Shown piece after piece: positions 8,920 to 60,024 of a stretch of DNA of 64,000 nucleotides. Position 1 is the stretch's first letter, and every line of letters begins with the position of its first letter. The position numbers were made by a program, and so were the translations under genes. Below the pieces are notes generated by a model. That model saw only the letters and a list, made by a program, of their open reading frames with translations, was not told where the DNA came from and did no database searches. The stretch is from Candidatus Doudnabacteria bacterium RIFCSPHIGHO2_01_FULL_46_24 (GTDB lineage Bacteria > Patescibacteriota > Doudnabacteria > UBA920 > O2-02-FULL-48-8). The stretch covers positions 72,264 through 136,263 of the forward strand of contig MFEL01000018.1 of NCBI GenBank assembly GCA_001777575.1, written 5' to 3'.

Positions 8920-9180
8920 ATGGATTCATCGGATCCTTACTATAATCCTGATGCCGAAAGTTTAAGGCAGGGAATAATTGAAAAACATCAGGCTAGAATG
9001 GAATCTGAGCTCGCAGATGCGCTTTGCCCGCACGGCAATATAAAATGGCAATGCCGCAAATGCCACGAACAAAACGAAGCCAAAAGAGACGCAGAAATAG
9101 AAAAGATGAGAGCCGACGCGGTTGAGGAAGCAGAGCATTTAGCAGAAAATAAGAATAATATTTATGAGCCAAGACATTGA
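8920..9180 (+). CDS. hypothetical protein with a Cys-cluster (CPHGNIKWQCRKCHEQ)
   Basis: 86-aa ORF overlapping the next ORF by 17 nt. Possible zinc-ribbon. Confidence 0.35.
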   Translation: MDSSDPYYNPDAESLRQGIIEKHQARMESELADALCPHGNIKWQCRKCHEQNEAKRDAEIEKMRADAVEEAEHLAENKNNIYEPRH

Positions 9181-33420: not shown

Positions 33421-33945
33421 CTGTTTCGCCTTCTGTATTTCCTCAATCGCCTTTCTAATTGCCTCGACTGCCTCGTTTTTATCTCCGAAGCCGGTAATCT
33501 CAACGGTTTTCTGCTTTTGCCTGGCGACTTCGGCGTAAAAATCTCTAAATTTTTGTTTTTCTTCTTCGGTCAGATTTCGTTCCAGTTCATCTGCGGGAAC
33601 GGCAATGATTTTATCATCTTGGACTCCACGATCCAGTTGTTTGATCACGGCAATCGGACGGCAAAGAATAATGCTGCCGGAGAGTAAAATTTTTTCGGTC
33701 AAAATAAAGACGTCAAGAGTGTCGCCGTCGCCTGTGGCTGTTTGAGGGATAAAGCCATAGTTATTTATGAACCGCAAGCCCTTCTTAAAGACAAAATCCA
33801 CAAACATTTTATCTTTGTTTTCGTCATATTCAATTTTATCCACGGAGCCGCGAGGAATTTCTACGATAACATTAAACCGCTCCGGGCTTCCGAGAGGTGT
33901 ATCTTTAAGCGCCATATTTCTCCATGTCTTTCCAGTTTGGGCCAA
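33364..33945 (-). CDS. ppa: inorganic pyrophosphatase (family I)
   Basis: VVEIPRGS..KIEYD, DGDTLDV, and YGFIPQT motifs. The C-terminal 25 aa (..RNTIETDRNKIETYGNK) are encoded by the repeat region and may be a non-native extension. Confidence 0.85.
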   Translation of the reverse strand: MAQTGKTWRNMALKDTPLGSPERFNVIVEIPRGSVDKIEYDENKDKMFVDFVFKKGLRFINNYGFIPQTATGDGDTLDVFILTEKILLSGSIILCRPIAVIKQLDRGVQDDKIIAVPADELERNLTEEEKQKFRDFYAEVARQKQKTVEITGFGDKNEAVEAIRKAIEEIQKAKQSRNTIETDRNKIETYGNK

Positions 33946-36175
33946 GTTTGGCTTCGACCACGATCGGCACCTTCAATTGATAAACCGATTCCATAATTTG
34001 TTTGAGCTTAAGGATAAGCTCATCAACTTTTTCTGGTTTGATTTCGAACACCAGTTCGTCATGCACAGTCAGCAGCATTCGGCAATCTCGTGATTCGTGA
34101 TTCTTGATTCGTGATTCGATTTTTATCATGGCCATTTTCAAAATATCCGCAGCCAGGGATTGCATGGGCATGTTGACGGCCGCGCGCTCGGCAGCAGCCC
34201 GCAGCCCCCAATTCGGCGAGTGAATGTCGGGGAAAAAACGCACCCGGCCCAGCGGATTTTTGACAAACCCGTCTTTGTGCGCCTGCTCAATGACGCTGTC
34301 AATGTATATTTTAAGCTGCTTAAACACTTCATAATATTTTTTGATATGCTCGCCGGCTTCGGCCCGCGTCATTTCCGACCGCTCGGACAGGCCAAAAGCC
34401 GACACGCCATACAACACGCTGAAGTTGATAGTCTTGGCATCGCGCCGCTGCGCAGGGGTGACTTCTGATTCCTTCACGCCGAAAATACGAGCAGCCGTGG
34501 CCGCGTGAAAATCGCCGCCGTTTTGGAAAATTTTAATCATTTCGGGGTCATTGGCAAGCGACGCGGCAATGCGCAATTCAATTTGGGAATAATCAAGCGA
34601 AGCCAGAACGTATCCTTTGTCTGCCACAAACGCCTGGCGGACTTGGTTGCCCAACTCGGTTTTGATCGGGATATTTTGGAGATTCGGCTCGGATGAAGAC
34701 AGCCGTCCAGTAGCCGCAATAGTTTGGCTGTACTGCGTATGCAGTCGGCCGTCTTTGCCCACTAACTTTGGCAGGGCATCCAGATAGGTGGATTTAAGCT
34801 TAGTCAGTTCGCGGTAGTCAAAAATCGAATCAACAATTGGGTGCAAACCCCGCAATTTTTCCAGCTGCCCAGCCGCGGTGGACAAGGCCTTGGTCTTGCC
34901 GGTTTTACGCAGGCCTTCTACGGGAATTTGCAGCTTGTCAAACAAAATTTCGCGCAACTGGATGGGGGAAGCAATATTAAACTCGCCGCCAGCCAACTTG
35001 TGGATTTTTTGAGTCAACTTACCGATCTCGCTCTCCGCGTCTTTCGAAAGCCGGGCCAAATATGCCGTATCGAGCTTGATGCCTCGCTTCTGCATATTTG
35101 CCAAAACCTGCATCAGCGGCAACTCGATCTCTTGATATATCCCAAAAAGCCCATGTTTTTTCAATCGTTCAATCAGCACGGCCAAATCTTGCGGCTCATA
35201 ACTGCGCTGACCGGGATTCAAAAGATACGCCGTAATTAGAGCTTCTGGTTTCTGCTCTAAAGAGGAGTTCTTTTTAGTGTCAAAGATTCCCTTTGACACT
35301 AATCCTGGTAAGCGATTAATTAAAGCCTTAATCCCCAGTTCATTCAATAATTTTATAACTTTCTGCCTATCATAATCTCCGATTTTTGTTTTCTCAAAAT
35401 CGAAATCGAGATGATTTTTTTGATCAATGTACGCAAGTTTTTTTGACAAATGTGCCTTATCTTTTCCGTCAACAAGTTTTTTCAGAATTCCCGGCTTGAT
35501 TTTTTTGTCTTGTTTTTCTACTGCTTCATATACACCGTCGAGCGAACCGAAGGTTTTGATCAAATCCAACGCGCCTTTTTCGCCAATACCGGGTACACCC
35601 GGAATATTATCCGAAGCGTCCCCGCGGATGGCTTTGTAATCCACCCATTGCGATGGCTTGAGGCCGTAAATTTCCACCATTTTGTCCGCGTCAAAAATTT
35701 GGATATCCGAAAAGCCGATTTTGAACCGGTAAACTTCCGTATGGCTGTCAATCAGCTGCAGCAAATCCAAATCCCCGGTGACAATGATGTTCAAAACATC
35801 TTTCGCCGTTTTGGCAGCAATAATACCCAGCAAATCGTCAGCTTCAAATCCCGCTTTTTCGTAAATGGGAATATCCAGCCCGGCCAAAATCTCTTTGACT
35901 TTCGGCAGCTGCATGGTCAGTTCATCAGGCGGCGCTTTTCTCGTGGCTTTGTAATCCGCGGCCAATTTATCGCGGAACGTCCCCCCGGGCACATCAAAAA
36001 CAACCACGGCATGCGTGGGTTTGATGTCAGCCAGCGCTTTGAAAAACATGGAAAAAAATCCAAAAATCGCCCCGGTGGGGAATCCATCCGAGTTGCTCAT
36101 GGCCGGCAAGGCATGGAAAGCGCGGTGGAACAGCGCATGCCCATCAATCAATAAAAGTTTTTTCTTGAGCTCCAT
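33905..36175 (-). CDS. polA: DNA polymerase I (5-prime to 3-prime exonuclease plus polymerase domains; no obvious 3-prime to 5-prime exonuclease domain)
   Basis: N-terminal FEN domain (LLLIDGHALFHRAFHAL), polymerase motifs A/B/C (DYSQIELR, RRDAKTINFSVLYG, VHDELVFE). The 756-aa length is Taq-like. Confidence 0.9.
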   Translation of the reverse strand: MELKKKLLLIDGHALFHRAFHALPAMSNSDGFPTGAIFGFFSMFFKALADIKPTHAVVVFDVPGGTFRDKLAADYKATRKAPPDELTMQLPKVKEILAGLDIPIYEKAGFEADDLLGIIAAKTAKDVLNIIVTGDLDLLQLIDSHTEVYRFKIGFSDIQIFDADKMVEIYGLKPSQWVDYKAIRGDASDNIPGVPGIGEKGALDLIKTFGSLDGVYEAVEKQDKKIKPGILKKLVDGKDKAHLSKKLAYIDQKNHLDFDFEKTKIGDYDRQKVIKLLNELGIKALINRLPGLVSKGIFDTKKNSSLEQKPEALITAYLLNPGQRSYEPQDLAVLIERLKKHGLFGIYQEIELPLMQVLANMQKRGIKLDTAYLARLSKDAESEIGKLTQKIHKLAGGEFNIASPIQLREILFDKLQIPVEGLRKTGKTKALSTAAGQLEKLRGLHPIVDSIFDYRELTKLKSTYLDALPKLVGKDGRLHTQYSQTIAATGRLSSSEPNLQNIPIKTELGNQVRQAFVADKGYVLASLDYSQIELRIAASLANDPEMIKIFQNGGDFHAATAARIFGVKESEVTPAQRRDAKTINFSVLYGVSAFGLSERSEMTRAEAGEHIKKYYEVFKQLKIYIDSVIEQAHKDGFVKNPLGRVRFFPDIHSPNWGLRAAAERAAVNMPMQSLAADILKMAMIKIESRIKNHESRDCRMLLTVHDELVFEIKPEKVDELILKLKQIMESVYQLKVPIVVEAKLGPNWKDMEKYGA

Positions 36176-36178
36176 AAG

Positions 36179-36217
36179 GATAGAATAACAAAAAAGCCCT
36201 TTCGGGGCTATTCTATC
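36179..36217 (-). terminator. rho-independent terminator after the Pif1-like helicase gene (gatagaata..agcccctttcggggct..tattctatc)
   Basis: Nested stems, followed on the minus strand by TTTTTTG. It overlaps the stop codon. Confidence 0.55.
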
Positions 36218-37779
36218 AGTCCGAGCTTGGCCAGGCGCGATCGGATGGCGCCTGTTTTGCGGCCAAAGATTGCCGCTAATTCCTTGACGGGCAGATTTTG
36301 CCCAAACGATTCCCGCAGCTTTTGATCTTGCTCTTCATCCCACGGCCGGTAAGCGTTTGGGTGAGTCTTCCTGGTCTGTTCAAAAGTCCCCTTAACCTCC
36401 TCGCTTGGCTCATTGACTTGCAAAATTTCTCCGCCGCTTCCGCGGATAAAATTTTCGTGCATCTTTTTTAGTTCCTTGGCCTCGAGCCTGCCAAATACCG
36501 CTACCGCTTCGTCCGAAGCCTGGCGAAACTCCTGGTCAGCCTCCAGGATTTCCGGGTGAACCTCAAACGTTCGCTCATTCCAGCCCAAAAGATGCAAACC
36601 AGCCAATGACCGGACTCTTGATAACGCCACGTAACCTTGCCCAAATTCAAACACGGCTCGTAAATCCATGACCGCCGCGTCCAGGCTCATGCCCTGGCTT
36701 TTGTGAACCGTGATGGCCCAGGCCAGGCGCAAGGGCAGCTGCGTGATGGTGGCCAGCACCCGGCCATTATCTTCCACAGTCCAGTCCATGGGCTCAACGT
36801 GGATTTTCTGGCCGGTGTGAGTTTTAACGATTGGATAACCAGATTGACTGTCGAAGCCTGCGACCAGGCCCAGAGTCCCGTTGACAAACCCCTCGCGCGG
36901 ATTATTCTTGGTAAACATAACCGCGGCCTTGGGCTTGAGTATAAGCCGCTCCGGCGACAAACAGGTTCTCTTCAAGACTTCCACTAATTTCGGCCGGCCT
37001 TTTTGGCGCATGGCAAACGTCCGCGGCTGGCCGGGCAGCTGGTTCAATTTTTCCTCGTTGACGCGATCCACGTCGGCATTGTGCGAAAACAGCTTGGGAA
37101 TGTTTTGCGGATGATTGTCAGCCTGGACGATCCGGCCCTCCAGATGCTGCAAATGGCTGCCGTCATTATTGAATTTATTGCCCCGAATCGCGCTCAAAAT
37201 CGTCAAAAAATCCAAATCTTCCTGCCGATACTGCTCGGTCAGATAGCAAACCGCCAGCTTGGCCGCAGGCCAGGCTTGGGACTTGTAAGCAAACCGGTCG
37301 AAAAGCCCTTGCAGCAGTCTGGGTTGCTGCTCATCCGCGCTTTGCACCGGCGGCAGCTGGAAAAAATCGCCGACCAAAATTATTTGCAAGCCCCCAAACG
37401 GCTCCTGATTTCTTTTAATTTCGCGGCAAACCGCATCCACCAGTGACAAGGTTTGAGCCGAGAGCATGGAGACTTCGTCAATGATCAAAACCTTGGCCCG
37501 GTTGACCCGCTCAAAGACATAGCGATTGCCGCTCAGCCGGTCCAGCTCGTAACGGTCCAAAAAAGTTTTGATGCCAATGCCGCTCCAGGAATGAACAGTC
37601 GTGCCGCCAATGTGCGTGGCCGCAATGCCGGTCGAGGCCGTGATGGCCGGCTCAATCTTGCGCTGGCGCAAATAGGAAACATATTGGTTGACGAGGTAGG
37701 TCTTGCCCGAACCCGGCTCGCCGGTCAAAAACACGTTGGCCCCGGTTTTGAGGATATTAAGCGCTTGTGCTTGAGTCAT
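36208..37779 (-). CDS. PIF1/RecD-like (AAA_30) ATP-dependent DNA helicase with a C-terminal HTH-like extension
   Basis: GEPGSGKT Walker A, IIDEVSML Walker B, and the QLPPV motif. 523 aa. Confidence 0.7.
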   Translation of the reverse strand: MTQAQALNILKTGANVFLTGEPGSGKTYLVNQYVSYLRQRKIEPAITASTGIAATHIGGTTVHSWSGIGIKTFLDRYELDRLSGNRYVFERVNRAKVLIIDEVSMLSAQTLSLVDAVCREIKRNQEPFGGLQIILVGDFFQLPPVQSADEQQPRLLQGLFDRFAYKSQAWPAAKLAVCYLTEQYRQEDLDFLTILSAIRGNKFNNDGSHLQHLEGRIVQADNHPQNIPKLFSHNADVDRVNEEKLNQLPGQPRTFAMRQKGRPKLVEVLKRTCLSPERLILKPKAAVMFTKNNPREGFVNGTLGLVAGFDSQSGYPIVKTHTGQKIHVEPMDWTVEDNGRVLATITQLPLRLAWAITVHKSQGMSLDAAVMDLRAVFEFGQGYVALSRVRSLAGLHLLGWNERTFEVHPEILEADQEFRQASDEAVAVFGRLEAKELKKMHENFIRGSGGEILQVNEPSEEVKGTFEQTRKTHPNAYRPWDEEQDQKLRESFGQNLPVKELAAIFGRKTGAIRSRLAKLGLIE

Positions 37780-37780
37780 A

Positions 37781-37830
37781 AAGTATCGATACCGCTACTA
37801 CGTATACGCAAACCACGTGGTTTCCGCAGT
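37781..37830. promoter_or_regulatory. cluster of three perfect palindromes (GTATCGATAC, CGTATACG, AACCACGTGGTT) upstream of the Pif1-like gene
   Basis: Read directly. Confidence 0.4.
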
Positions 37831-37880
37831 TATTTCTTGTTGATCAAATTCACGATCAATTTGATGATCGTGTCTTTCTG
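37830..37880 (-). pseudogene. remnant of a Fic-gene 3-prime end (encodes ..QKDTIIKLIVNLINKK-stop), a duplicate of the C-terminus of the Fic gene at 38496..39488
   Basis: The 51-nt segment is about 84 percent identical to 38496-38546 and is in frame with the same stop, but has no upstream ORF. Confidence 0.5.
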
Positions 37881-37886
37881 TTCCCG

Positions 37887-38156
37887 CTAAGATATCGATA
37901 CTTTTAGTTTGCTGTCTAATGCTTTGGCCACTCGCCCAAGAAATTTTAGACTCGGGTTGAAGTTTCCTTGCTCCAAGCGGGAAATGACTGGCTGTTTAGT
38001 ACCAATCCTTTTGGCTAGTTGCTTTTGGGTCAAACCTTTTTGCAAACGCTTGGCAATCAACGTTTCTACCAAAGCAAACTCAACGCCTAATTCATCATAG
38101 GCTCTTTTAACCGCTTTGTCTTGCAGTAATTTAGACTTGAACCGTTTATATTCCAT
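37887..38156 (-). CDS. XRE-family HTH antitoxin (HigA-like)
   Basis: 89-aa ORF with an HTH (LTQKQLAKRIGTKQPVISRLE). It lies immediately downstream of the toxin gene with a 14-nt gap. Confidence 0.65.
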   Translation of the reverse strand: MEYKRFKSKLLQDKAVKRAYDELGVEFALVETLIAKRLQKGLTQKQLAKRIGTKQPVISRLEQGNFNPSLKFLGRVAKALDSKLKVSIS

Positions 38157-38170
38157 ATTACCAATATAAC

Positions 38171-38488
38171 TTATAAGTTATAACTTGTCAAGGCCTTAAG
38201 TTTACTCTTGGCTCTGTCTAATTCTTTCCGGGGCGTTTGTTGAGATTTCTTAACGAACCCTGAAAGCAGATAAATTTTACCTTGACAAAAGCAATAAAAT
38301 ATTCTCACTTCCTGTCGGCCTCGAGTTCTTAGCTCAAATAAATTCCCGGTAATTTTTTTGCTATGCGGCATTGGCAGGCGGTAACTAAATCTTTCCAGTA
38401 AATCAACGGTTCGCAAAACTTTGGCAATCGTCTGCTTCTCTAGCGAGAAAATAAATTCTTCTATTTCTGAGTTAGTAATTATATCCAT
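38171..38488 (-). CDS. RelE/ParE-superfamily toxin, HigB / Gp49-like (DUF891)
   Basis: 105-aa ORF with NLFELRTRGRQEVRIFYCF..KIYLLSGFVKKSQQTP, typical of Gp49-like killer proteins. The order (toxin upstream of antitoxin) matches HigBA. Confidence 0.6.
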   Translation of the reverse strand: MDIITNSEIEEFIFSLEKQTIAKVLRTVDLLERFSYRLPMPHSKKITGNLFELRTRGRQEVRIFYCFCQGKIYLLSGFVKKSQQTPRKELDRAKSKLKALTSYNL

Positions 38489-38495
38489 AAAAGGA

Positions 38496-39488
38496 TTATT
38501 TTTTATTGATCAGATTCACGATCAGCTTGATGATTACGTCTTTCTGCGAAGGATCAGACTCCGCCGTCAGCAGCGTCACGGCGGTCAGTGCCGCATCATT
38601 GATCTTGCGCTCGCCGCGCCGGTTGTAAAAAATGTCGTTCTGGATCAGATACTGCAAAAACAGCAAGGATCCGACGCGCTTATTGCCGTCCACGAACGGG
38701 TGCCCCTTGACCACAAAATACAACAAGTGCGCCGCCCGCTCCTCCAAACTTGGGTAAAGCGGCTTGCTGTTAAAAGATTGGTCAATGCTGCCGACGATGG
38801 AAGCCAGCTTGTGGCTGACTTCCACGCCGAACAGATCGCTGGCCTGTTTCGCGTTTTGCAGACGCTGCCGGAAGCGCTTGATGCTTTTGAGCACTTCTTC
38901 ATAGTTAAGCACTCTACCCGGTTTTTCGCTGACATTACTGATCGCCAGTTTCTGCTCATCATACAAATTCAAAACAAACCAGGTGTTGGCGTAGTCGGAA
39001 ATGATTTTCAAAAGTTCGCGTTCGTAGCCCTCGGCCCGATACGATTCCAGCGCCTGCTGGATGAGTTTATGCGCGGTTTCCAGTTCCTTGAGTTTCGCCA
39101 CGTGAGCTTCGGGAAGGCGCTTAGCGTTGACGACAAACCCCTTGATCAGATAGTCGCGCATTTTCTGCGTCGCCCAGATACGAAACTGGGTTGCCCGTTT
39201 GGAATTGACCCTGTATCCCACGGATAAAATAAAATCAAGATTATAAAATTTTACCGGTTTATCAGAATTTGCAATGTGCAAATTTTGCACATTGCTTTTT
39301 TCTGCCAATTCCCCTGATTTTATTATGTTTCTAAGGTGCTTGGCAACAGAACTCCGATCAGTCTGAAAAAGCTCAGAAATGCCAGCTTGGGTCAGCCAGA
39401 CAGTTTCATCATAAAGACTAACCCGCAGTTCCGGGCCGGTTTCGGCCTTATAAATGACAATTTCGCCCTTGTGTTCTTGCTTGTCCAT
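38496..39488 (-). CDS. RhuM-family N-terminal domain fused to a Fic/DOC domain protein
   Basis: The C-terminal region carries the Fic motif HPFVDGNKRVG. The N-terminal two-thirds matches RhuM-like virulence-protein family composition. Confidence 0.65.
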   Translation of the reverse strand: MDKQEHKGEIVIYKAETGPELRVSLYDETVWLTQAGISELFQTDRSSVAKHLRNIIKSGELAEKSNVQNLHIANSDKPVKFYNLDFILSVGYRVNSKRATQFRIWATQKMRDYLIKGFVVNAKRLPEAHVAKLKELETAHKLIQQALESYRAEGYERELLKIISDYANTWFVLNLYDEQKLAISNVSEKPGRVLNYEEVLKSIKRFRQRLQNAKQASDLFGVEVSHKLASIVGSIDQSFNSKPLYPSLEERAAHLLYFVVKGHPFVDGNKRVGSLLFLQYLIQNDIFYNRRGERKINDAALTAVTLLTAESDPSQKDVIIKLIVNLINKK

Positions 39489-39557: not shown

Positions 39558-41198
39558 CTATTCCTCGGTCACGCGGAAGACTTCCTCCACATCAGTAATT
39601 CCGGCAAGCACTTTCAAGATGCCGTCTTGGGCCATGGTCAGCATGCCGGAGGCTAGAGCCTGCCGCTTGATTTCCGTATTCGACGCGCCTTGGTTGATCA
39701 GCTTCTCGATTGATTCGTTGACTACAAAAATTTCATAAACCCCGACCCGCCCCTTATAGCCCAATCCTTTGCATTTGCCGCATCCCGGGCTGTGATAAAA
39801 TTTCAAATTTTTCGGCACGTCAACTTTGGCATTCTTGGGAACGGCGGCCAAAATTGTTTCCACGTGCTGAATAAGTCGCGGAGCCGGTTGATACTCAACC
39901 TTGCAGGCTGAGCAGATCTTGCGCACCAATCGCTGTCCGATGATGGCATTGATGGCCGGGGAAAGCGTAAACGGTTTGACGCCCAAATCCAAAAGCCTCG
40001 GAATGGCCCCGGCCGCATCGTTGGTGTGAAGGGTCGACAACACAATATGCCCGGTCAGCGCCGCCTGGCAGCCGATTTCAGCCGTTTCCAAATCGCGCAT
40101 TTCTCCGACCATGACAACATCCGGGTCCTGCCGCAACACCGCGCGCAAGCCTGAGGCAAACGTCATGCCAGCTTGCGCATCAATTGGGGTCTGGGTAATA
40201 CCGGCAATTTTGTATTCCACCGGATCCTCCAGGGTGATGATCTTCACCCCCGGCTCATTGAGTTTGTTCAAAATGGCATAGAGCGTGGTGGTCTTGCCGC
40301 TGCCGGTCGGGCCAGTGGTCAAAATCATGCCATTAGGCTTCTCCATTTCTTTCAGTAGCTGATCATAAGCCAGCCCTTTGATGCCCAATTCTTCAAACTG
40401 AAGCGCGCCCTTGTCCTGCCGCAAAATTCTCATTACCACTGATTCACCGAACGCCGACGGCAGCACGGAAACGCGGACATCCACCTGCTGGCCATCATAT
40501 GTGAGGCTAAATGAGCCGTCCTGGGGCGTGGTCGTGACATTGAGCTTGAGCTTCGACAAAACTTTGATGCGGGAAACCAGCTGGTGCTGGAGCTCGCGGG
40601 ACAGCACCGTGACATCCTGCAGCACCCCGTCGATGCGGAAGCGGACATGCATGTCTTTGGCTGTTGGCTCCACGTGAATGTCCGAGGCGTCCAAATGCAA
40701 CGCGTTGCCCAAAAGCATTTCTATCACTTCCGTGGGCGAAGCATTGGTCAGTTTCTCCCCCATGTCCTTGAGCGTTGCCCCGCTTTGTTGGAAAGATTTG
40801 CTTATTAGGAGAATCTCCTGTGATTTTCTTTTGCCGGACACCAACCGGTCATACATGCTGAGCGCTTTGTTAAAACTGCTTTGAGAAATGATGAACAGCT
40901 CGACATAATAGCTCTGCTCTTTGAGCTGGCCCAAGAACTTGTTAATCTCATCGCTTGGTTCAAGCGCCCCGAGCTTGATATTCCGCCCTTCTTTGTAGAA
41001 TGTAGCGACCTTCAAACGCTCGGCTTCTTCCTTGGGCACGATTGCCAAGGCTGCATGATCAACCGGGAAGCCGTAAAGGTTGATATAAGGCAAACCAAAA
41101 GACTCGGCAGTGCGCTGGGCCTGCTCTTCCTCGTATTTGCGGTCAAGTTCCGAATAGATTTGTTTCAGCCGGATGGCCTTGTCATCGGCGCTAAGCAT
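39558..41198 (-). CDS. type II secretion / type IV pilus assembly ATPase (GspE/PilB family)
   Basis: GPTGSGKTTTL Walker A, DPVEY, Asp and His boxes, and a C-terminal tetracysteine zinc motif (CSACK..CGKCKG). Confidence 0.85.
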   Translation of the reverse strand: MLSADDKAIRLKQIYSELDRKYEEEQAQRTAESFGLPYINLYGFPVDHAALAIVPKEEAERLKVATFYKEGRNIKLGALEPSDEINKFLGQLKEQSYYVELFIISQSSFNKALSMYDRLVSGKRKSQEILLISKSFQQSGATLKDMGEKLTNASPTEVIEMLLGNALHLDASDIHVEPTAKDMHVRFRIDGVLQDVTVLSRELQHQLVSRIKVLSKLKLNVTTTPQDGSFSLTYDGQQVDVRVSVLPSAFGESVVMRILRQDKGALQFEELGIKGLAYDQLLKEMEKPNGMILTTGPTGSGKTTTLYAILNKLNEPGVKIITLEDPVEYKIAGITQTPIDAQAGMTFASGLRAVLRQDPDVVMVGEMRDLETAEIGCQAALTGHIVLSTLHTNDAAGAIPRLLDLGVKPFTLSPAINAIIGQRLVRKICSACKVEYQPAPRLIQHVETILAAVPKNAKVDVPKNLKFYHSPGCGKCKGLGYKGRVGVYEIFVVNESIEKLINQGASNTEIKRQALASGMLTMAQDGILKVLAGITDVEEVFRVTEE

Positions 41199-43915: not shown

Positions 43916-44989
43916 CTATCGCTCTGGTATGACAGCCGTGCCCGTTCTTTCAAAATACTCCCTATCAAAAACCAACTGAAGCAAATCTTGCTCCAAGCCA
44001 TGGCCATTGCAGTGCGTGAGCATACCCAAATACGATTGGATTGTCTGGATAAAAGATCCTTGACTTAATTGCCCGGCTTCAAATTTATTGCGGGCCAGTG
44101 CTATTTTTCTAAACATCCGCCTTTTAGTCTTATTTCTCAAGACTATATGATGGGGCAGAATTATATAGCCCAGAGAATCAATTCCTTGCCCAAATTTTCT
44201 GATCGATACTTTATCGGGGTGCAACGATAGCTGCAGTTCTTGCTGCAAAAGATGTTGAATGGTAGCGCACTGGTTTATCAGCTCGTGTTTATTCGACGAT
44301 AAAATTATAAAATCGTCAGCGTACCGAAAATAATGCCTGGCATGCAGCCGATGTTTAATAAACTGATCTAGTTCATTCAAATATATGTTGGCAAAAATCT
44401 GCGAGCTTAAATTCCCAATCGGAAGTCCTGTAACTCTCTCTCTCTCTCTTGAAAAATTATCCACAACAAAACTTTTAACAACCTCTTCAATTAGCCACAA
44501 AAAGTGTTTGTCGCTGATTTTATTTTTAATTATCTGCAACAGCTTCTGGTGAGAAACGCTGTAGAAAAACTTGTAGATGTCGCATTTGAGCGCAAATACA
44601 TTCCTGCTATTGTTGCGGCTTACCTTTCTTAAAGCGATTGCCAAATTATTAACAGCCAAATGCGTTCCCTTATCCAAACGGGAAGCATAGGAGTGGTAAA
44701 TAAATTTGGGGTCAAATATCCGATACAGTTCATTAAAAATCAGATGATGAACCAGGCGATCACGAACAGTCGCCTTGCTAATAACCCGGTGTTTCGGATC
44801 CCAAATATGGAAAGTAATATAAGGTCCGTGCCGATAAGTCTGATTCTCAAGTTGTCGGTGAAGTTCAAAAATATTATCTTCCAAGTGCCGCTCAAATTCC
44901 AAGACATCCCTCTTCTTTTGTTTCTCTTTCCTAAATTCGTCCCAGCATAAAAATAAATTATCAATATGCAAGAATTGCCTATTCTCCAT
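43916..44989 (-). CDS. DGR-type reverse transcriptase
   Basis: RT motifs are present, including LPIGNLSSQ (the DGR-specific I/LGxxxSQ form of motif 4) and YADDFIIL (motif 5). The N-terminus (CWDEFRKEKQKKRDV..TYRHGPYITFHIWDPKHRVISKATVRDRLVHH) matches the general DGR RT pattern. Confidence 0.85.
   Translation of the reverse strand: MENRQFLHIDNLFLCWDEFRKEKQKKRDVLEFERHLEDNIFELHRQLENQTYRHGPYITFHIWDPKHRVISKATVRDRLVHHLIFNELYRIFDPKFIYHSYASRLDKGTHLAVNNLAIALRKVSRNNSRNVFALKCDIYKFFYSVSHQKLLQIIKNKISDKHFLWLIEEVVKSFVVDNFSRERERVTGLPIGNLSSQIFANIYLNELDQFIKHRLHARHYFRYADDFIILSSNKHELINQCATIQHLLQQELQLSLHPDKVSIRKFGQGIDSLGYIILPHHIVLRNKTKRRMFRKIALARNKFEAGQLSQGSFIQTIQSYLGMLTHCNGHGLEQDLLQLVFDREYFERTGTAVIPER
44434..44449. 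repeat. (CT)8 dinucleotide simple-sequence repeat inside the RT coding sequence (encodes R-E-R-E-R on the minus strand)
   Basis: Read directly and cross-checked against the protein FSRERERVTG. Confidence 0.8.
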
Positions 44990-45304
44990 AAATTAACCGA
45001 ATTTTATAAAACATTTTATCTCTATCTCGCCTCTTTTCCTCAAAAGGATAAATATGCCCTTGGCGCCAAATGCGAAGGCTATATTATTTCAACTCTTGAA
45101 TTATTATTGGCAGCGGAATACGCCAGCAAAAATCAAAGGCTGCAACTAATACAGCAGGCTTCCGTCAAATTCGATATGCTTAAGTCTTTTATCCGTATCG
45201 CCAAGGAGCTGAAAATTCTGGATCAGAAAAAATACATCCGCCTGGAAGCGGAATTACAAGAGATCGGCCGCCAGCTGGGAGGCTGGCAGCGATCTTTGAG
45301 CTAA
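44966..45304 (+). CDS. Avd-like accessory variability determinant (four-helix-bundle protein)
   Basis: 112-aa ORF. Its C-terminus (..EIGRQLGGWQRSL) and the SFPQKDKYALGAK..ASKNQ segment resemble the general Avd/four-helix-bundle family pattern. The first 24 nt are shared with the RT start on the other strand. Confidence 0.75.
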   Translation: MQELPILHKLTEFYKTFYLYLASFPQKDKYALGAKCEGYIISTLELLLAAEYASKNQRLQLIQQASVKFDMLKSFIRIAKELKILDQKKYIRLEAELQEIGRQLGGWQRSLS

Positions 45305-45315
45305 AGCATAGACGC

Positions 45316-45437
45316 AACCCGAGGAGGCACACGCCGCCGGAGTAGTTGTCGTTGGCATTCAGATTCCTGTTGTCGAACTTCAACTTGTCGTCGTTGGCCT
45401 TGAAGTAGAGCGAGTGCTGCTTCGACTGCCAGAATTT
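45316..45437 (-). repeat. DGR template repeat (TR)
   Basis: Aligns with 45706-45827 at an offset of 390 nt. Plus-strand T (minus-strand A) in the TR corresponds to A, C or G in the VR at about 23 positions. There is one non-A difference (TR 45396, G versus A). Confidence 0.85.
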
Positions 45438-45621
45438 GTCTTTTTCCTTCCACTAGCACCGGAGAATAATTACTTATCCTCCTGAATTTCATTTCGTCCG
45501 CAATGGACGTTGAAAAAAGACAAGTAGTGTCTATACTTTTTGCATGTATAGGATTTCAGCGGCTTAAGTCCGTAAACTTAAGCGCATTAACCTACTTTCA
45601 AGAATAATTTTATAACAAAAG

Positions 45622-45672
45622 AAAAACGGGAGCAATCAAGGACTGCTCCCGTCCGGACTCCTCCGAGAGTCC
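45622..45672 (-). terminator. two hairpins downstream of the target gene and VR: GGACTC-ctccga-GAGTCC, and GGGAGCA-atcaaggac-TGCTCCC followed by a T-run on the minus strand
   Basis: Read directly. The second has terminator character. Hairpins immediately 3-prime of the VR are a known DGR feature. Confidence 0.5.
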
Positions 45673-45704
45673 AAAACCCAAAACCCGAGAAACCGACGAA
45701 TGCA

Positions 45705-46646
45705 CTACCCGAGGAGGCACACGCCGCCGGAGTAGTTGTCGTAGGCACACAGATCCCCGCAGCCGAACCACAACCGGTCGCCGAAAGCCCTGAAGTAGAG
45801 CGAGTGCTGCCCCGACTGCCAGAGCACTGCGGCACAGTCCAAACCCGGCGTCTGGTAATCGCGCGCCAGCACGTCTGGGTAGGTGGTCAGCGCTGCTGCC
45901 GGCTCGATGACCCCGCACAGCAACACGTCCGCAGGCAGCGTAGCCATCTGCTCCCGATCTGCCGGGATCGAAAATCCCTGCAGGCAGTTCGGGGAATAGC
46001 CCAGCACAACCGAACCTTCGGCCAGCTTGCGCAGCAGGCGGTTGTGGCTTTGGGCCACGACCTTGACCTGCTTGGCCAGTTCCCCTTCGCGGTAGTTCTT
46101 GAAGCTGCGCCCGGGAAATTGCTGCTCGTAAGCCCGCTTGACCCCGGCCAGCAGCTTGTCGTCGGTAAACTGGCCTAGATCGCCAATCTGCATTTTCGGC
46201 AACGCCAACGGCAACACCATGCCATGAGTAGGCAGGTTGGCCATGAGCGGATCAGTCGCGAGACGGCAGAGAATCGCCGCGAACCGCGCTTCGAACTCGT
46301 CAGCTGACATGAACGCGCTGCCGCCGAAGTGCTCCACGAACCGCTCGAGACGCGCCGCAAAGTCCACTTTCGGCTGGTCGAGGTAGAACGACCGGTTCGC
46401 ATCCACAGCCTTGGCCTTCATGCCTTGGGGTGGGATGCGACGGCCGTTGCTGTCGAACAGCGGTTTGATCGGCTCTTCCAGCACGAACTCGCCCGATTCG
46501 TTTTCCGTGTCTGGCTTGGTAATCTTGAAAACGAGCCTGCCGCTCTTCACGGCTAACGCGTTCTCATTACCGCCAAGGTTGCTGATGAGCGAGCGGTAGT
46601 CGTTCCCGCTCCAAGGCCCCAACGTTTCCCATTCTATGAGTTTCAT
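45705..46646 (-). CDS. DGR target (variable) protein; the VR occupies the last 40 codons or so
   Basis: 313-aa ORF. The C-terminus (..AYDNYSGGVCLLG) is encoded by the VR. The TR-encoded equivalent reads ..NANDNYSGGVCLLG, with Asn (AAC) codons at the varied positions. GGAGGA lies upstream of the ATG. No signal peptide is evident. Confidence 0.75.
   Translation of the reverse strand: MKLIEWETLGPWSGNDYRSLISNLGGNENALAVKSGRLVFKITKPDTENESGEFVLEEPIKPLFDSNGRRIPPQGMKAKAVDANRSFYLDQPKVDFAARLERFVEHFGGSAFMSADEFEARFAAILCRLATDPLMANLPTHGMVLPLALPKMQIGDLGQFTDDKLLAGVKRAYEQQFPGRSFKNYREGELAKQVKVVAQSHNRLLRKLAEGSVVLGYSPNCLQGFSIPADREQMATLPADVLLCGVIEPAAALTTYPDVLARDYQTPGLDCAAVLWQSGQHSLYFRAFGDRLWFGCGDLCAYDNYSGGVCLLG
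45706..45827 (-). repeat. DGR variable repeat (VR) at the 3-prime end of the target gene
   Basis: See the TR entry. Confidence 0.85.
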
Positions 46647-54835: not shown

Positions 54836-55930
54836 CTAGAGTTTAATCGGCATGACGATGTAGAGGTAATTGTCGCGGCCCTCGGGGACAATTTGAGCAG
54901 GCGACGCGTCATTGATCATCCGAAACACCACTTTCGGCTCAGCCAGATTGTTCAGGCAGTCAAGCATGTACCGGAAATTAAACGTTGCCGTATTTTTCTC
55001 GCCCGTAACCTTAGCTGAAACCTTGGTCACGTTTTCACCGGCTTGCGCGGAAGAGGCATTAACCGTTACCCCGTCTTTATCCACGCTGATTTGGACATTG
55101 TTCGATTCTGGCGCAAATAAACTGGCGGCCTTAAGCGCATGTGTCAAATCATCTTTGGACAACCCCGCCTCGGTCTTAAACTCTTTGGGGATGATTTGGC
55201 GGTAATCCGGATAATTTCCGTCAATCAGGCGCGAGATTATTTCGGTTTCGTCGAATTTGAACAGAACTTGGGTTTCTGAAAAATAAATCTCAACCATGCC
55301 CTTGCTGCTGCCGAGGATTTTGTAAAGCTCCATGACAGTGCGGGACGGCACAATGGCTTCGCGGGAAGCGCTGACTGGTTGGTCCAAAACCACCATTCTT
55401 TCAGCCAACCGGTAGCGGTCAGTGGCGGCAAGCCTAAGTTTACCCTCTTCGAACGCCATAAAAATTCCGGAAATTTCCGGCTGGGTTTCGTTTTGAGAGG
55501 AGGCCCAGACGGTTTCAGAAAGCGCTTTCCTCAACTCTTCGCTGTCGATTTTGGTGTAAGCTTCATCTAAAACTTGGGGGATAAGCGGGAAGTCTTCGGA
55601 CGAAAGCCCGCGAATATTGGTATGGTAATTCTCCGATTCCAGGCTTAGGGTGGTGTCTTTAACACTCATAGTCACCTTGTCCGTTGGCAGGTTAGTGATA
55701 TATTCATTTATCAGCCGCGCTGGAACCGTCAGCGCCCCCTCCTCCTCCACCTTGCCGCCGATCCACGTGTTGACCCCAATTTCTAAATTAGTAGAGGAAA
55801 GTTTAAGCCGCCCTTGGTCGGTTTTGAGTAAAATATTATTAAGTACGGCCAGAGAGTTGCCGCTGCCCACCACCCGGCTGACCGCAAACAGACCTTTTTT
55901 TAAGTTATCCTTAGTGCATACTAACTTCAT
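54836..55930 (-). CDS. dnaN: DNA polymerase III beta sliding clamp
   Basis: 364-aa ORF with a three-domain clamp pattern (MKLVCTKDNLKKGL...). Confidence 0.9.
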   Translation of the reverse strand: MKLVCTKDNLKKGLFAVSRVVGSGNSLAVLNNILLKTDQGRLKLSSTNLEIGVNTWIGGKVEEEGALTVPARLINEYITNLPTDKVTMSVKDTTLSLESENYHTNIRGLSSEDFPLIPQVLDEAYTKIDSEELRKALSETVWASSQNETQPEISGIFMAFEEGKLRLAATDRYRLAERMVVLDQPVSASREAIVPSRTVMELYKILGSSKGMVEIYFSETQVLFKFDETEIISRLIDGNYPDYRQIIPKEFKTEAGLSKDDLTHALKAASLFAPESNNVQISVDKDGVTVNASSAQAGENVTKVSAKVTGEKNTATFNFRYMLDCLNNLAEPKVVFRMINDASPAQIVPEGRDNYLYIVMPIKL

Positions 55931-56108
55931 AAATTTATAAAATGATAATGATAATAGAAACTGTTAATTTGTGTATTTGTTAAAATTATCTATTGACGAA
56001 TTGCGAATTAACGAATTAATTATTTGAATTACTGTTTTTATTTTGGGTGTAAGTTGGGTATAAAAAACCGAAATCCGAAACCCGAAATTTTTAATTCACA
56101 ATTTATCC
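55931..56108. promoter_or_regulatory. AT-rich dnaA-dnaN intergenic region with CGAATT and CCGAAAT tandem repeats; candidate DNA unwinding element and oriC component
   Basis: The 178-bp spacer is strongly AT-rich and contains cgaattgcgaattaacgaattaatt and ccgaaatccgaaacccgaaat. A DnaA-box-like aatttatccc is also present. Confidence 0.4.
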
Positions 56109-57443
56109 CTATGGCATATACAACCTATCCTTAATCAAATCAATCTCCTGTTTGAGGCTGTTGCGCTCTTTCATGTGCCGCTCGATCTTGTCGACGGCGT
56201 GGATGACTGTGGTGTGATCGCGGCCGCCAAAGAATTCGCCGATGGACGGCAGGGACGTTTCCAATTCGCGGCGGATGATGAACATGGCGATTTGTCTTGG
56301 ATTGACGTACTCCTTCTTTCTTGACTGTTTGAGCAGGTCTTCCACGGAAACATTGTAGAAATCCGCCACCACCTCAATGATTTTTTTGGCGGAAATCCCG
56401 CGTTTTTTGGGTGGGGTGATGACGTTAACTAGGATACTTTTGACCTGTTCGATGGTCGGGTTGGTGTTGTTGAGTTGGCAGTAAACCATGAGCCGGTTTA
56501 AGGCCCCCTCCAGTTCGCGGATGTTGCTCTGGATGGTTTCCGCGATGTAAGTTAGGATTTCCGGCTCAATGTTATAATTTTTTTCCCGGGCTTTGGTTCT
56601 TAAAATTGCCAAGCGGGTTTCCAGATCCGGCGCTTGGATATCCGCCACCATCCCCCATTCAAATCGGGACACCAGCCGCTCTTCAATGGCTGGAATTTCC
56701 TTCGGCAGCCGATCCGAAGTCATGACCACCTGCTTGTTGTTTTGGTGCAGCGCGTTGAAAGTGTGAAAAAATTCTTCTTGTGTGCCTTCGCGGCCGGCCA
56801 GAAACTGGATATCATCCACCAACAACACATCGACGTTGCGGTAAAGGGATTTGAAAGTGTTGGTTTTGCCTGCAGAAACGGCAGTCACGAATTCATTGGT
56901 GAATCTTTCCGAGGTTACGTATAAAACCTTGGCTTCCGGGGTTTTTTTAAGCACCTCTGCCCCGACAGCTTGCATTAAATGGGTTTTGCCCAACCCCACG
57001 CCCCCATAGATGAACAGCGGGTTGTAGATTTGCCCGGGCTTTTTGCTGACTGCCTGGGAGGCGGCGTGCGCCAATTGGTTGTTGGAGCCGACGACAAAAC
57101 TGGTAAAGGTGTATTTGGGGTTGAGGTTTTGGTTTTCCGCTCGTTTGGCAGATTGGGGCCTGACCACCTCTTTGGTTGCGGGCAGCGGCATGGCTGAGGG
57201 GCTGACAATCTGATACTTAACCTCTTTGATTTCCGGAGAAATGGTTTTGAGCGCTTTCAGGATCTCTTGGTGATACTTGTTCTGCAGCCACTCTTTGGAA
57301 AATGCGCTCGGCACGCCAACCGCAATTCCGATTTCACTCTTTTCAATAATTGAGGTGTGCTTAAACCATGTGGTGAAATTAGCTTTGCTTAAAGTTAACT
57401 CCAAATTTCCCAGTATTGCCTGCCAAAGTTGCTGATTAGTCAT
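56109..57443 (-). CDS. dnaA: chromosomal replication initiator protein DnaA
   Basis: AAA+ motifs (GGVGLGKTHLMQAVG, LLVDDIQF), and a C-terminal domain IV DNA-binding signature. Confidence 0.95.
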   Translation of the reverse strand: MTNQQLWQAILGNLELTLSKANFTTWFKHTSIIEKSEIGIAVGVPSAFSKEWLQNKYHQEILKALKTISPEIKEVKYQIVSPSAMPLPATKEVVRPQSAKRAENQNLNPKYTFTSFVVGSNNQLAHAASQAVSKKPGQIYNPLFIYGGVGLGKTHLMQAVGAEVLKKTPEAKVLYVTSERFTNEFVTAVSAGKTNTFKSLYRNVDVLLVDDIQFLAGREGTQEEFFHTFNALHQNNKQVVMTSDRLPKEIPAIEERLVSRFEWGMVADIQAPDLETRLAILRTKAREKNYNIEPEILTYIAETIQSNIRELEGALNRLMVYCQLNNTNPTIEQVKSILVNVITPPKKRGISAKKIIEVVADFYNVSVEDLLKQSRKKEYVNPRQIAMFIIRRELETSLPSIGEFFGGRDHTTVIHAVDKIERHMKERNSLKQEIDLIKDRLYMP

Positions 57444-57621
57444 AAGTTAGGTCAACCGTCATTTTAGCAGATTAGTTATCAACATGTAAATCCTGAAATT
57501 TTGGCTAATCTTAGCCTAAATTATTTTAGAGTGTTAATAAAGTGTGGAATGCTGGTTGAAAGCTTGTGTGAGCGGCAGCCTAGGTGACAAAAACGAGAAA
57601 ATTTAGTATAATCATCTGGCT
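57444..57621. promoter_or_regulatory. dnaA-rpmH divergent intergenic region with DnaA-box-like sequences (GTTATCAACA; GTGTGGAAT) and the rpmH promoter GTGACA, 17-bp spacer, TATAAT (57584-57612)
   Basis: Read directly. rpmH and dnaA diverge here, and gene orientation switches from predominantly minus to plus. Confidence 0.45.
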
Positions 57622-57756
57622 ATGCAACCGACATATAGGCCGAAAAAATTGAGAAGAAAGCGTGTGCATGGGTTCCGAGCTCGCATGAAAAGCCGAGCCG
57701 GCCGCTTGGTTTTGTCGCGCCGACGCGCCAAGGGCCGGAAGCGGCTGACAGTTTGA
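57622..57756 (+). CDS. rpmH: 50S ribosomal protein L34
   Basis: The 44-aa [47 protein letters not shown] was found by hand; it is below the 60-aa cutoff of the track. It matches the universal bL34 pattern and shares an ATGA-type overlap with rnpA. Confidence 0.85.
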
Positions 57757-58085
57757 TGAAGCCAATATTTCTTACAAGTAAAGCGGATTTCGAGAAATTC
57801 CGCACCAGCAAAGCGTTTTACAGCGAAGGCATGAAACTGCGGGTGGCTTGGTCGAACCAAAACTTTCCTCGTTTTGGTTTTATTATTCCAAAAAAAGTCC
57901 TGCCTAAAGTTTCCGACCGCAATAAGCTCAAGCGCCGCTTGCGCGCGATCATCCGCGCAAATTTGAGCCGGGTTGCCAGCAAAGACCTGCTCATTTTCCC
58001 GAAATCGGGCGCCATCAGAAAAACTTACAAGCAGTTAAATGCTGAATTTATTTCCCTTTTAACCCAAGCGAGATTATGGAAATGA
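57753..58085 (+). CDS. rnpA: ribonuclease P protein component
   Basis: 110-aa basic protein with RNR-like motif context ([11 protein letters not shown]), located downstream of rpmH. Confidence 0.8.
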
Positions 58086-58339
58086 ACACGGTTCAAGTAT
58101 TGAATAAAACACTGGCCCTGCCTATGGTTGGGGTGATTTATCTTTACCAAAAAACCCTCTCGCCTGATCATGGAATTTTTCGAAGCCGCTACCCCTATGG
58201 TTTTTGCAAGCATTACCCCAGCTGCTCCATGTATGCCAAACAGATTTTTATTAAGCGGGGCGTGCTGGGTTTGCCTCGCGTAATGCGCCGAATTATCTCG
58301 TGCAACCCCTGGAGCTTGGGAGGAATTGATTTGCCATGA
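58076..58339 (+). CDS. yidD: membrane protein insertion efficiency factor YidD
   Basis: C.HYPSCSMYA...GGIDL pattern, as in YidD. Confidence 0.8.
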   Translation: MEMNTVQVLNKTLALPMVGVIYLYQKTLSPDHGIFRSRYPYGFCKHYPSCSMYAKQIFIKRGVLGLPRVMRRIISCNPWSLGGIDLP

Positions 58340-59040
58340 TCAGTCAGATTTTTAATCAAGCTTTGGTTTATCCCCTGCTGAACCTGCTGGTGTTTTTTTA
58401 TAATTATATTCCGGACATCGGCGCGGTAATTATTATTTTGACCGTGATTGTCCGGCTGATTTTGTATCCGTCCTTCCACCGCTCACTTAAGCACCAGCGC
58501 GCGCTTTCCGCCCTGCAGCCCAAGATGAATGAGATCAAGGAGAAATACAAGGACAATAAAGAACAGCAGGCCAAGGCCATGATGGAACTGTACAGTGCCC
58601 ACAAAGTCAACCCGTTAAGCTCCTGTCTGCCGCTTTTGGTCCAACTGCCCATTTTGATTGCGCTTTATCAGGTGTTTATTCAAAGCCTCAACGGCGCTGG
58701 CTTGCAGGGCATTTACAATTTTATCCCAACGCCCGATAAGATTGATCCCATGTTTCTCAATTTTATTAACCTTAAGGACCGCAATGTCTGGATGCCGGCC
58801 ATTGCCGCCATCCTTCAGTACTTCCAAAGCAAGCTGACCCTGCCCAAGGCTTCCGGCGGAGACACCATGAGCAAAATGATGGCCATGCAAACCTTGTATA
58901 TGTTTCCAGTTTTGACTTTCTTCATCGGCTTGCAGTTCCCGGCCGGCCTTACGCTGTATTGGATAGTCACCACTCTTTTTGGCATCGGCCAGCAGTATTA
59001 CATTTTGCGTAAAGAAGCCAAGGAGGCATTGACATCATGA
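58336..59040 (+). CDS. yidC: membrane protein insertase YidC (short Gram-positive/CPR-type form)
   Basis: 234-aa ORF with 5 transmembrane helices and the YidC/Oxa1 core. ATGA overlap with yidD. Confidence 0.8.
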   Translation: MISQIFNQALVYPLLNLLVFFYNYIPDIGAVIIILTVIVRLILYPSFHRSLKHQRALSALQPKMNEIKEKYKDNKEQQAKAMMELYSAHKVNPLSSCLPLLVQLPILIALYQVFIQSLNGAGLQGIYNFIPTPDKIDPMFLNFINLKDRNVWMPAIAAILQYFQSKLTLPKASGGDTMSKMMAMQTLYMFPVLTFFIGLQFPAGLTLYWIVTTLFGIGQQYYILRKEAKEALTS

Positions 59041-59537
59041 ATGAGAAAGAGTTGATAAAACAACAGCTCCTGGACCTGCTCAAACACATGGGGTTTGATG
59101 CGGACATCCTGGAGCGACAGGAAGAGGGGCGGATGGTGTTTAACATCAAAACGCAAGATGCTCAGCTTTTGATTGGCAAGCAGGGGGCCAATCTTGAGGC
59201 GCTGCAGTACATCATTCGCGCCTTCAGCCGCAAAAATCCGGAGTCCGAGCGGTTCCCGTTCGCACTGGATGTGGATGATTACAAAGACAAGCGCGTGATT
59301 TATCTGAAAGAACTGGCGCGCCGCGCTGCGCACCAAGCGCGCAGCAGCAAGCGCAGCGTCGGCCTGCCGCTGATGCCGGCCTTTGAGCGCAAAGTCGTGC
59401 ATGACTACCTTTCACTATTTGCCGATATTTCCTCTGAAAGCCAGGGAATGGAGCCCAACCGCCGCGTGGTCATCCGAAACAAAAAATCTACCCCCCAGCA
59501 ACCCTCAGACGACTTCGTGTTTATAGAAAATTCCTAA
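59037..59537 (+). CDS. jag: Jag/KhpB-like RNA-binding protein (KH plus R3H domains)
   Basis: N-terminal Jag_N, a KH-like LIGKQGANLEALQYI segment, and a C-terminal R3H (RKVVHDYL). Confidence 0.75.
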   Translation: MNEKELIKQQLLDLLKHMGFDADILERQEEGRMVFNIKTQDAQLLIGKQGANLEALQYIIRAFSRKNPESERFPFALDVDDYKDKRVIYLKELARRAAHQARSSKRSVGLPLMPAFERKVVHDYLSLFADISSESQGMEPNRRVVIRNKKSTPQQPSDDFVFIENS

Positions 59538-59613: not shown

Positions 59614-60024
59614 ATGAACAATAACTTCTCAAAGACAATCCAGCGCTTTGCTGATTGGGCCAAGCTGAAGCTTGGTATCCACTTAAATCGAAAGCCTTAT
59701 GCGATTTATTTCAAACCGCGCCAAATCTGGTGGGTAAACTTAGGACAAAATATTGGTAGTGAACAAAACGGCAAGCATAAAAATTTTGAACGGCCGGTTT
59801 TAATTCTTAAAAAATTTAATGCTGAAATATTTTTGGCAGTTCCACTGTCAAGCCAGGTTAAGTCCGGAGCTTTCAGGGTTGTGTTTCAGAAGGGCAATAA
59901 TAATTTCACGGCCAATCTTTCTCAAATTAGAGTTTTGAGCAGTAAACGCCTGCTTCGTCAGATTGGTAAAATGGACAAACAGGCATATGAAACGATTAAG
60001 CAGGTGTTCCACAAACTGGCGTGA
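59614..60024 (+). CDS. MazF/PemK-family endoribonuclease toxin (orphan, with no adjacent antitoxin)
   Basis: IWWVNLG...GSEQNGKHKNFERPVLIL...AVPLSSQVK...SQIRVLSSKRL matches the PemK/MazF fold signature. Confidence 0.55.
   Translation: MNNNFSKTIQRFADWAKLKLGIHLNRKPYAIYFKPRQIWWVNLGQNIGSEQNGKHKNFERPVLILKKFNAEIFLAVPLSSQVKSGAFRVVFQKGNNNFTANLSQIRVLSSKRLLRQIGKMDKQAYETIKQVFHKLA

Follow-up and report, generated by a model that had tools for sequence, protein, structure and literature searches.

Organization of the locus

The subject of this analysis is a 64,000-nt stretch of a Candidatus Doudnabacteria genome that originates from aquifer metagenomes (MFEL01000018.1, positions 72,264-136,263; hereafter the window, whose own positions are used throughout), and within it a predicted HigBA-type type II toxin-antitoxin pair that lies between a gene of the RhuM/Fic-DOC family and a gene for a PIF1-family helicase, with one copy of the end of the Fic gene on either side. 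On the minus strand the genes follow one another in the order PilB (39558-41198), RhuM/Fic-DOC (38496-39488, 330 aa; PF13310, E = 1e-21; PF02661, E = 1.1e-10), HigB (38171-38488, 105 aa), HigA (37887-38156, 89 aa), the PIF1-family helicase (36208-37779; PF05970, E = 3.2e-35, its place being supported by synteny in the contigs L117, L118 and L119 described below) and PolA (33905-36175). The HigB-type toxin belongs to the Gp49/RelE-ParE superfamily (PF05973, E = 1.8e-21) and the HigA-type antitoxin is an XRE/HTH_3 protein (PF01381, E = 3.2e-14).

The last 51 nt of the Fic gene (copy B, 38496-38546) reappear in direct orientation on the far side of the toxin-antitoxin pair (copy A, 37830-37880), with 43 of the 51 positions (84%) identical and with the two starts 666 nt apart. 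Between the copies lie 615 nt (37881-38495), made up of 6 nt, HigA, 14 nt, HigB and 7 nt, which together with one copy of the repeat form a 666-nt unit. The ATG of HigB stands 7 nt downstream of the Fic stop, 6 nt separate the end of HigA from copy A, and a 50-nt spacer (37780-37829) leads from copy A to the start codon of PIF1. A degenerate 29-mer built from the repeat finds only these two matches in the 64-kb window and none in 100 shuffles, and when the 800-nt flanks of the cassette are compared by BLASTN, upstream against downstream, the similarity is returned with E = 5e-12. It breaks off sharply at both edges, one being the TAA stop codon and the other a CAG, 51 nt before the stop ends; the Fic homology of copy A may reach 6 nt further, to 37886. 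Both tails have a GC content of 31%, and the longest perfect run that they share is 11 nt.

Read in frame on the minus strand, each copy encodes the C-terminus of Fic followed by a stop codon: QKDTIIKLIVNLINKK in copy A and QKDVIIKLIVNLINKK in copy B. Copy B is the genuine, translated end of the 330-aa RhuM/Fic ORF (open reading frame), while copy A lacks a start codon and forms no ORF. The earlier note on this DNA had reported a HigB/HigA-like pair between direct repeats of about 84% identity, in frame with a stop, and a far-side copy without an ORF; the alignment and the domain matches bear out all of this, at exactly these coordinates. Copy A is in the reading frame of HigA, two codons past its TAG stop (VSIS, stop, R, E, QKDT). 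Readthrough of that stop (37830-37889, minus strand) would append REQKDTIIKLIVNLINKK to HigA; a shared frame has a one-in-three chance of arising, and we know of no TAG recoding in this lineage.

Ten contigs that were assembled independently, in several sampling projects, carry the same structure with 99.9-100% identity (10 of the 23 contigs that have an identical Fic), which excludes an assembly artefact. A polymorphic empty site was sought among these 10 contigs and was not found, all of them being 99.9-100% identical over the region.

Divergence of the two Fic tails

Copies A and B differ at 8 bases, of which 5 are isolated and 3 fall within a single codon. All five isolated differences are synonymous (AAA/AAG, TTG/CTG twice, AAC/AAT and AAG/AAA), and one codon is changed at all three bases, being ACG (Thr) in copy A and GTA (Val) in copy B, so 15 of the 16 residues and the stop codon are kept. 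Among random single substitutions in the codons of the tail only 18-21% are synonymous, and 8 random substitutions leave at most one amino-acid change, with the stop codon counted, at a frequency of 4.5e-5 (200,000 simulations). The synonymous differences and the retained stop indicate that the tails diverged under purifying selection, that is, as working coding sequence in two different Fic alleles, before they were joined. According to the earlier note, the far copy was derived from the 3' end of the adjacent Fic gene; the synonymous pattern (P = 4.5e-5) points instead to another Fic allele. Its proposal that the cassette had entered the end of a Fic gene by insertion or recombination, duplicating it, stands as to recombination, but the duplication is contradicted by the five synonymous changes and the one wholly exchanged codon.

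Three comparisons failed to tell which of the tails is native. Codon usage is uninformative, with TTG/CTG, AAA/AAG and AAT/AAC balanced in all host genes; the nucleotide distance to the syntenic contig L118 is the same for both (41/51 each for A and B, counted by hand from the alignment); and windowed identity along Fic fails as well, the N-terminus being mosaic and the C-terminal half equally close to L117 and L118.

One further property of copy A concerns the exchanged codon. At 37851-37872 the Thr codon ACG completes a perfect 8-bp inverted repeat (CACGATCA...TGATCGTG), which the GTA of copy B breaks, and all three bases of the sole non-synonymous codon coincide with the gain or loss of this hairpin. 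It is a terminator-like hairpin of the antisense strand, produced by the Thr-Ile...Ile-Val codons.

The Fic family and the Fic-PIF1 junction in relatives

The translation of the Fic gene contains the Doc-like active-site motif HPFVDGNKR, which conforms to the core HxFx(D/N)(A/G)NKR. The TIGR01550 model (DOC_P1) scores 32.9 bits, below its cutoff of 38.65, and the domain is therefore Doc-like rather than an equivalog of P1 Doc; homologs at NCBI are labelled 'virulence protein RhuM/Fic/DOC family protein'. The family is abundant in Doudnabacteria, with the C-terminal ...KL[IV]VNLINKK as its most conserved part, and its members occur in a variety of housekeeping contexts, such as PilB-hypothetical-PolA-Fic-S20 (L116), FtsK-hypothetical-Fic-RodZ-RecA (L120) and RpoC-Fic (L122). 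The Fic protein of the window is itself a mosaic, in which alignment columns 41-80 are 82% identical to L116 and only 30-35% identical to L117 and L118. This mosaicism, together with the varied contexts, implies that recombination in the family is frequent. The RhuM/Fic-DOC genes of L116, L120 and L122, tightly packed among differing neighbours and with a swapped N-terminal region, also resemble a mobile mosaic cassette in their own right.

Synteny in the order PilB-Fic-PIF1-PolA is common to three contigs (L117, L118 and L119), with protein identities of about 70%, and PIF1 is the conserved downstream neighbour of Fic in these relatives. In none of the three is the junction in the state of the window. 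L118 presents an empty site, in which the Fic TAA is followed after 5 nt by the ATG of PIF1; L117 has the order PilB-Fic-PemK toxin-PIF1-PolA; and L119 shows the C-terminus of the same PemK upstream of PIF1. A single Fic gene is present at the locus in L117 and L118. From the junction states of the three contigs it follows that the ancestral order had one Fic gene directly before PIF1, and the gene orders indicate that different small toxin genes came to occupy the Fic-PIF1 junction independently. The PemK insertion of L117 carries no duplicate of the Fic tail. The window contains a PemK/MazF-type toxin ORF of its own at 59614-60024 on the plus strand (136 aa; PF02452, E = 2.6e-13), located directly behind jag, near dnaA and dnaN, in a GC-poor island; its product is 39% identical (E = 2e-27) to the junction PemK of L117.

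Other Fic loci were collected from a scan of genome contigs with Fic (80 loci) and, later, through homologs of Fic or PIF1 (8 loci); at none of those fetched is there an orphan Fic tail or this HigBA pair beside Fic. The nearest Fic locus of the genome scan (L011, 69% aa identity) has a different context and no adjacent HigBA. The scan of metagenomes with PIF1 yielded only relatives that are at most 62% identical (apart from one short fragment at 70%) and share no synteny, and the closest relatives in the PIF1 protein search are 70-72% identical. One candidate, L059, in which Fic and PIF1 lie 4 kb apart, proved to be unrelated.

The HigBA cassette

With 38.5% GC over its 615 nt, against 49% for the body of Fic, 54% for PIF1 and 49.6% for the window, the cassette is among the stretches of lowest GC in the 64 kb, and its composition marks it as a foreign island. 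HigB scores 76.4 bits for the Gp49 family (PF05973), with a cutoff of 23.9, and none of the NCBIfam models matches it; the reversed gene order of HigBA systems is also found, with the toxin before the HTH-XRE antitoxin across a 14-nt gap on the minus strand. The nearest homologs of HigB outside the species are 72-73% identical, and homologs of 60-73% identity are distributed over many lineages of the candidate phyla radiation (CPR). They are located between unrelated housekeeping genes or beside phage portal and terminase genes (L113-L115), and HigA partners HigB at every homologous locus examined. In L113-L115 the HigBA pair (HigB 66-69% identical) stands directly upstream of phage portal-like genes, in L115 also near a terminase gene (GpA_ATPase), and it is possible that phages serve as a vehicle of this cassette family.

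A scan of the interval between the Fic stop and the HigB ATG revealed no promoter-like site. On the other hand, a strong sigma-70-like match, TTGACA-17-TATATT (11 of 12 consensus positions, a match to the consensus only), is present at the 3' end of HigB (38163-38191, minus strand), in a position to drive HigA. Taken together, the two results suggest that HigB is probably expressed by readthrough from the Fic transcript and HigA from a promoter of its own. The orphan tail is most likely inert.

Analogous scars at other HigBA loci

Duplicated gene ends or leaders are not restricted to the window. Of five distinct loci with HigBA homologs, two carry comparable scars (L107 and L111) and three do not (L104, L113 and L115). 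In L107, a contig from the same sample as one of the contigs of the window species, the RsmI (TP_methylase) gene ends in LTKENTKGEFTVLISFKK and a stop, and an orphan copy, LTKENTKGEFTVLVSFK with its stop, follows 220 nt downstream, just before the HigB leader. The two RsmI tails are identical at 37 of 51 nt and at 16 of 17 aa, with 12 synonymous codon differences, a pattern matched by none of 200,000 random-substitution simulations (P < 5e-6). Before this orphan, and fused to it, stands the YebC leader with the first ~12 codons once more, in a diverged second copy that includes a perfect 16-mer; in L107 the arrangement is at 4632-4976 and 5589-5723. In L111 the direct repeat is 27 nt long and 85% identical (3973-3999 and 4729-4755), and it contains a terminator T-tract, a TATAAT and a leader. 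The ATG of HigB immediately follows one copy, and 5 nt separate the other copy from the ATG of the DUF5674 gene downstream. These scars, which include leaders and 5' codons of single-copy genes, vary in length and are diverged, as recombination between diverged genomes would account for but a fixed att site or the decay of paralogs would not.

Origin of the orphan tail

We consider it probable that recombination with a diverged relative at the Fic-PIF1 junction displaced the 3' end of a Fic allele and left it as the 51-mer at 37830-37880; the tail may be the remnant of a replaced resident allele and not of a tandem paralog. The starting point would be the ancestral arrangement PilB-Fic-PIF1-PolA, with PIF1 just past the Fic stop. 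One exchange would be homologous, placed in Fic or upstream of it if the cassette was on the incoming DNA, or in PIF1 if the cassette-free side was incoming, and the other end would be joined illegitimately, from a point directly behind the HigA stop to one 51-57 nt ahead of the stop codon in the other Fic allele. If the cassette was incoming, a donor fragment with the 3' part of Fic, HigB and HigA would pair with the resident Fic or with the region upstream, and the resident tail A would stay before PIF1. In the mirror case, which is equally possible, a cassette-free donor fragment would be anchored in PIF1 and would have its ragged end within its own Fic tail. The product would be Fic (with tail B)-HigB-HigA-orphan tail A-PIF1, and the likely route is either homology-facilitated illegitimate recombination (HFIR), with a linear fragment, or the integration of a circularised fragment by a single crossover. 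The tails would then resemble a direct repeat because both parental genomes carried a Fic gene with a highly conserved C-terminus. With a longest perfect run of only 11 nt, a single crossover inside the 51-mer is a less attractive option. The hexamer TAGCGG coincides with the HigA stop and recurs beyond tail A, ending 38 nt downstream of it, with 29 nt between the stop of the tail and the start of the hexamer; this is a hint of microhomology at the junction that does not reach significance.

Several observations weigh against this explanation. A 51-nt duplication by single crossover requires RecA to pair DNA that is 84% identical with a perfect run of 11 nt, which is inefficient, and classical HFIR yields an insertion plus a deletion. 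At either side the cassette extends no more than 7 nt beyond its ORFs, which recombination alone does not predict, and the 6 nt before copy A (CGG GAA) agree with the Fic codons of relatives (CCG GAG) at 4 of 6 positions, a microhomology that is suggestive at most. The C-terminal half of the window Fic is as near to L117 and L118 as these are to each other, and hence there is no visible breakpoint of an import near tail B. The searches described above yielded no donor lineage and no close relative (>90% identity), whether it had the cassette or lacked it; all 10 contigs of the species are identical, so the event is not observed directly; and the generality of such scars rests on few loci (2 of 5).

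The best of the alternatives is the decay of a tandem paralog, in which an arrangement Fic1-HigBA-Fic2-PIF1 lost all of Fic2 save its last 17 codons, the deletion being halted at the HigA stop since loss of the antitoxin would be lethal. Such a history accounts for the divergence of the tails under purifying selection and for the sharp edge at HigA, and Fic genes are numerous and mobile in Doudnabacteria. We nevertheless regard it as unlikely. The syntenic loci of L117 and L118 have a single Fic, the fetched loci include no tandem Fic and no other orphan tail, and an additional, unseen duplication or insertion would be required, followed by a deletion that ended 0-6 nt from the HigA stop. Moreover, the scars in L107 and L111, which consist of leaders and 5' codons of single-copy genes, would be left unexplained. 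The suggestion in the earlier note that a second Fic paralog had been deleted, leaving its tail, thus loses ground; the intact second Fic that it expected to find here in relatives in the case of simple decay was looked for in the syntenic contigs and is absent from them.

Site-specific integration at the 3' end of Fic, either of a cassette mobilised in trans or of a prophage with a surrogate-tail attP that later decayed and left HigBA between attL and attR, seems to us more doubtful still. The repeats do bracket the cassette exactly and restore an intact Fic frame, the tail holds a palindromic motif (TTGATCAA), homologs of HigB occur near phage portal and terminase genes (L113-L115), and the Fic-PIF1 junction carries different toxin cargo in different species. 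However, no integrase or recombinase is encoded in or beside the unit, whose neighbours are PilB, PIF1 and PolA; the viral collection contains neither an exact match to a degenerate 24-mer of the tail end nor a close HigB; none of the other fetched Fic loci has a second cassette bounded by Fic tails; the PemK insertion of L117 lacks a tail duplicate; and the scars beside other HigBA pairs are of variable length and derive from unrelated flanking genes, unlike a fixed att site.

Least credible of all is a target-site-like duplication followed by drift of the non-coding copy, or a chance resemblance: direct repeats around an insert are a classic signature of insertion, but chance predicts zero matches, 51 nt far exceeds the target duplications made by transposases, the unit has no transposase ORF and no terminal inverted repeats of the kind that transposons or insertion sequences possess, and the kept stop and the synonymous pattern, with P = 4.5e-5 under unconstrained drift, place the tails in different Fic alleles, which excludes a transposition-type target duplication and effectively refutes duplication on the spot with subsequent decay.

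Implications

If the orphan tail was displaced by recombination, as we favour, the locus shows how a toxin-antitoxin pair entered between tightly packed genes of housekeeping type in an uncultured groundwater bacterium of the CPR without the machinery of a mobile element, and the synonymous differences place the two copies in separate genomes. For annotation this would mean that the 51-mer is neither an attachment site nor the pseudogene of a lost paralog, and that HigB is probably expressed from the Fic transcript. If such scars prove common around small cassettes in the CPR, they would provide a cheap marker, readable from sequence only, of gene flow of the transformation type and of the divergence between donor and recipient.

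A broader and distinctly speculative proposal, to which we attach little weight, is that conserved gene ends (the Fic/Doc tail and those of housekeeping genes) serve as recurrent docking points for toxin cassettes without integrases, such as HigBA and PemK, which would move between CPR bacteria by natural transformation and leave heterologous gene-end scars. Were this so, the exchange of cassettes would be driven by host recombination, and the scars would be a fossil record of donor, recipient and horizontal transfer in uncultured lineages.

Other elements of the window

The Fic/HigBA locus is located ~17 kb from dnaA, and the genes of the origin region (dnaN, dnaA, rnpA, yidD, yidC and jag, recognised by eye from their translations) occupy 54836-59537. 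Another pair of repeats (8312-8342 and 8974-9004; 31 nt, 77% identical, spacing 662 nt) was judged to be a chance resemblance, with one copy in a leader and the other within an unrelated ORF. A diversity-generating retroelement extends over 43916-45823 and comprises a reverse transcriptase (~43916-44902) and a bAvd accessory gene (~44966-45304), both with coordinates converted from the annotation of L001, and a 117-nt template/variable repeat pair (45317-45433 and 45707-45823) that is 84% identical. Its repeats show the classic pattern of adenine mutagenesis, 18 of the 19 mismatches being at a plus-strand T (minus-strand A) of the first copy.

Comparison with known systems

The element e14 and phage 21 integrate into the 3' end of icd in E. 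coli and supply it with a surrogate 3' end. As in that case, the Fic gene of the window is intact with tail B, and tail A is displaced beyond the insert. Whereas e14 and phage 21 are kilobases in length and code for an integrase, the 666-nt unit codes only for HigB and HigA, and neither a recombinase nor a recurrent att site was found among the ORFs of the unit, at the other fetched Fic loci or in the viral scans. With respect to its cargo, the cassette is like higBA of Rts1 in that the toxin comes first, HigB belongs to the Gp49/RelE-ParE superfamily, HigA is an XRE-HTH protein and a separate promoter-like site precedes higA. HigB of the window, starting 7 nt past the Fic stop, has no upstream promoter region, whereas its homolog in L107 has a 68-nt leader with TTGACA-17-CATAAT (identified by eye).

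HFIR and the single-crossover integration of circularised fragments have been described for transformation or conjugation in S. pneumoniae, A. baylyi, P. stutzeri and E. coli, and single crossovers leave duplications of 109-950 bp (PMC3240628). The locus shares with HFIR the position of foreign DNA beside a conserved anchor gene and, on the reading favoured here, would also share one homologous and one illegitimate junction. Two marks of an HFIR scar are present: the flanking copy is of a different origin from the resident copy, as indicated by the synonymous pattern (P = 4.5e-5), and relatives (L117, L118 and L119) display an empty or alternative state of the junction. It differs from the HFIR experiments in being a natural scar, reconstructed in an uncultured CPR bacterium, with a segment of 51 nt that is 84% identical.

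Displacement of the HFIR type has also been proposed as the source of orphan 3' ends in T6SS (type VI secretion system) and Rhs loci (PMC5361080), and a parallel in outcome is the displacement of C-termini in Rhs, CDI (contact-dependent inhibition) and T6SS effector-immunity loci (PMC5361080; Jackson et al. 2009 as cited there). There, as proposed here, an incoming module that has a conserved part of the gene in common shifts the previous 3' end downstream, and this end survives as an untranslated orphan. In those systems a variable toxin domain is displaced together with its immunity gene; in the window it would be the conserved end of a Doc-type Fic gene, 17 codons long, that was displaced, and the HigBA pair that forms the cargo is unrelated to Fic. 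We take the feature for a recombination scar of a generally known type, an orphan gene end, that occurs here in a new setting.

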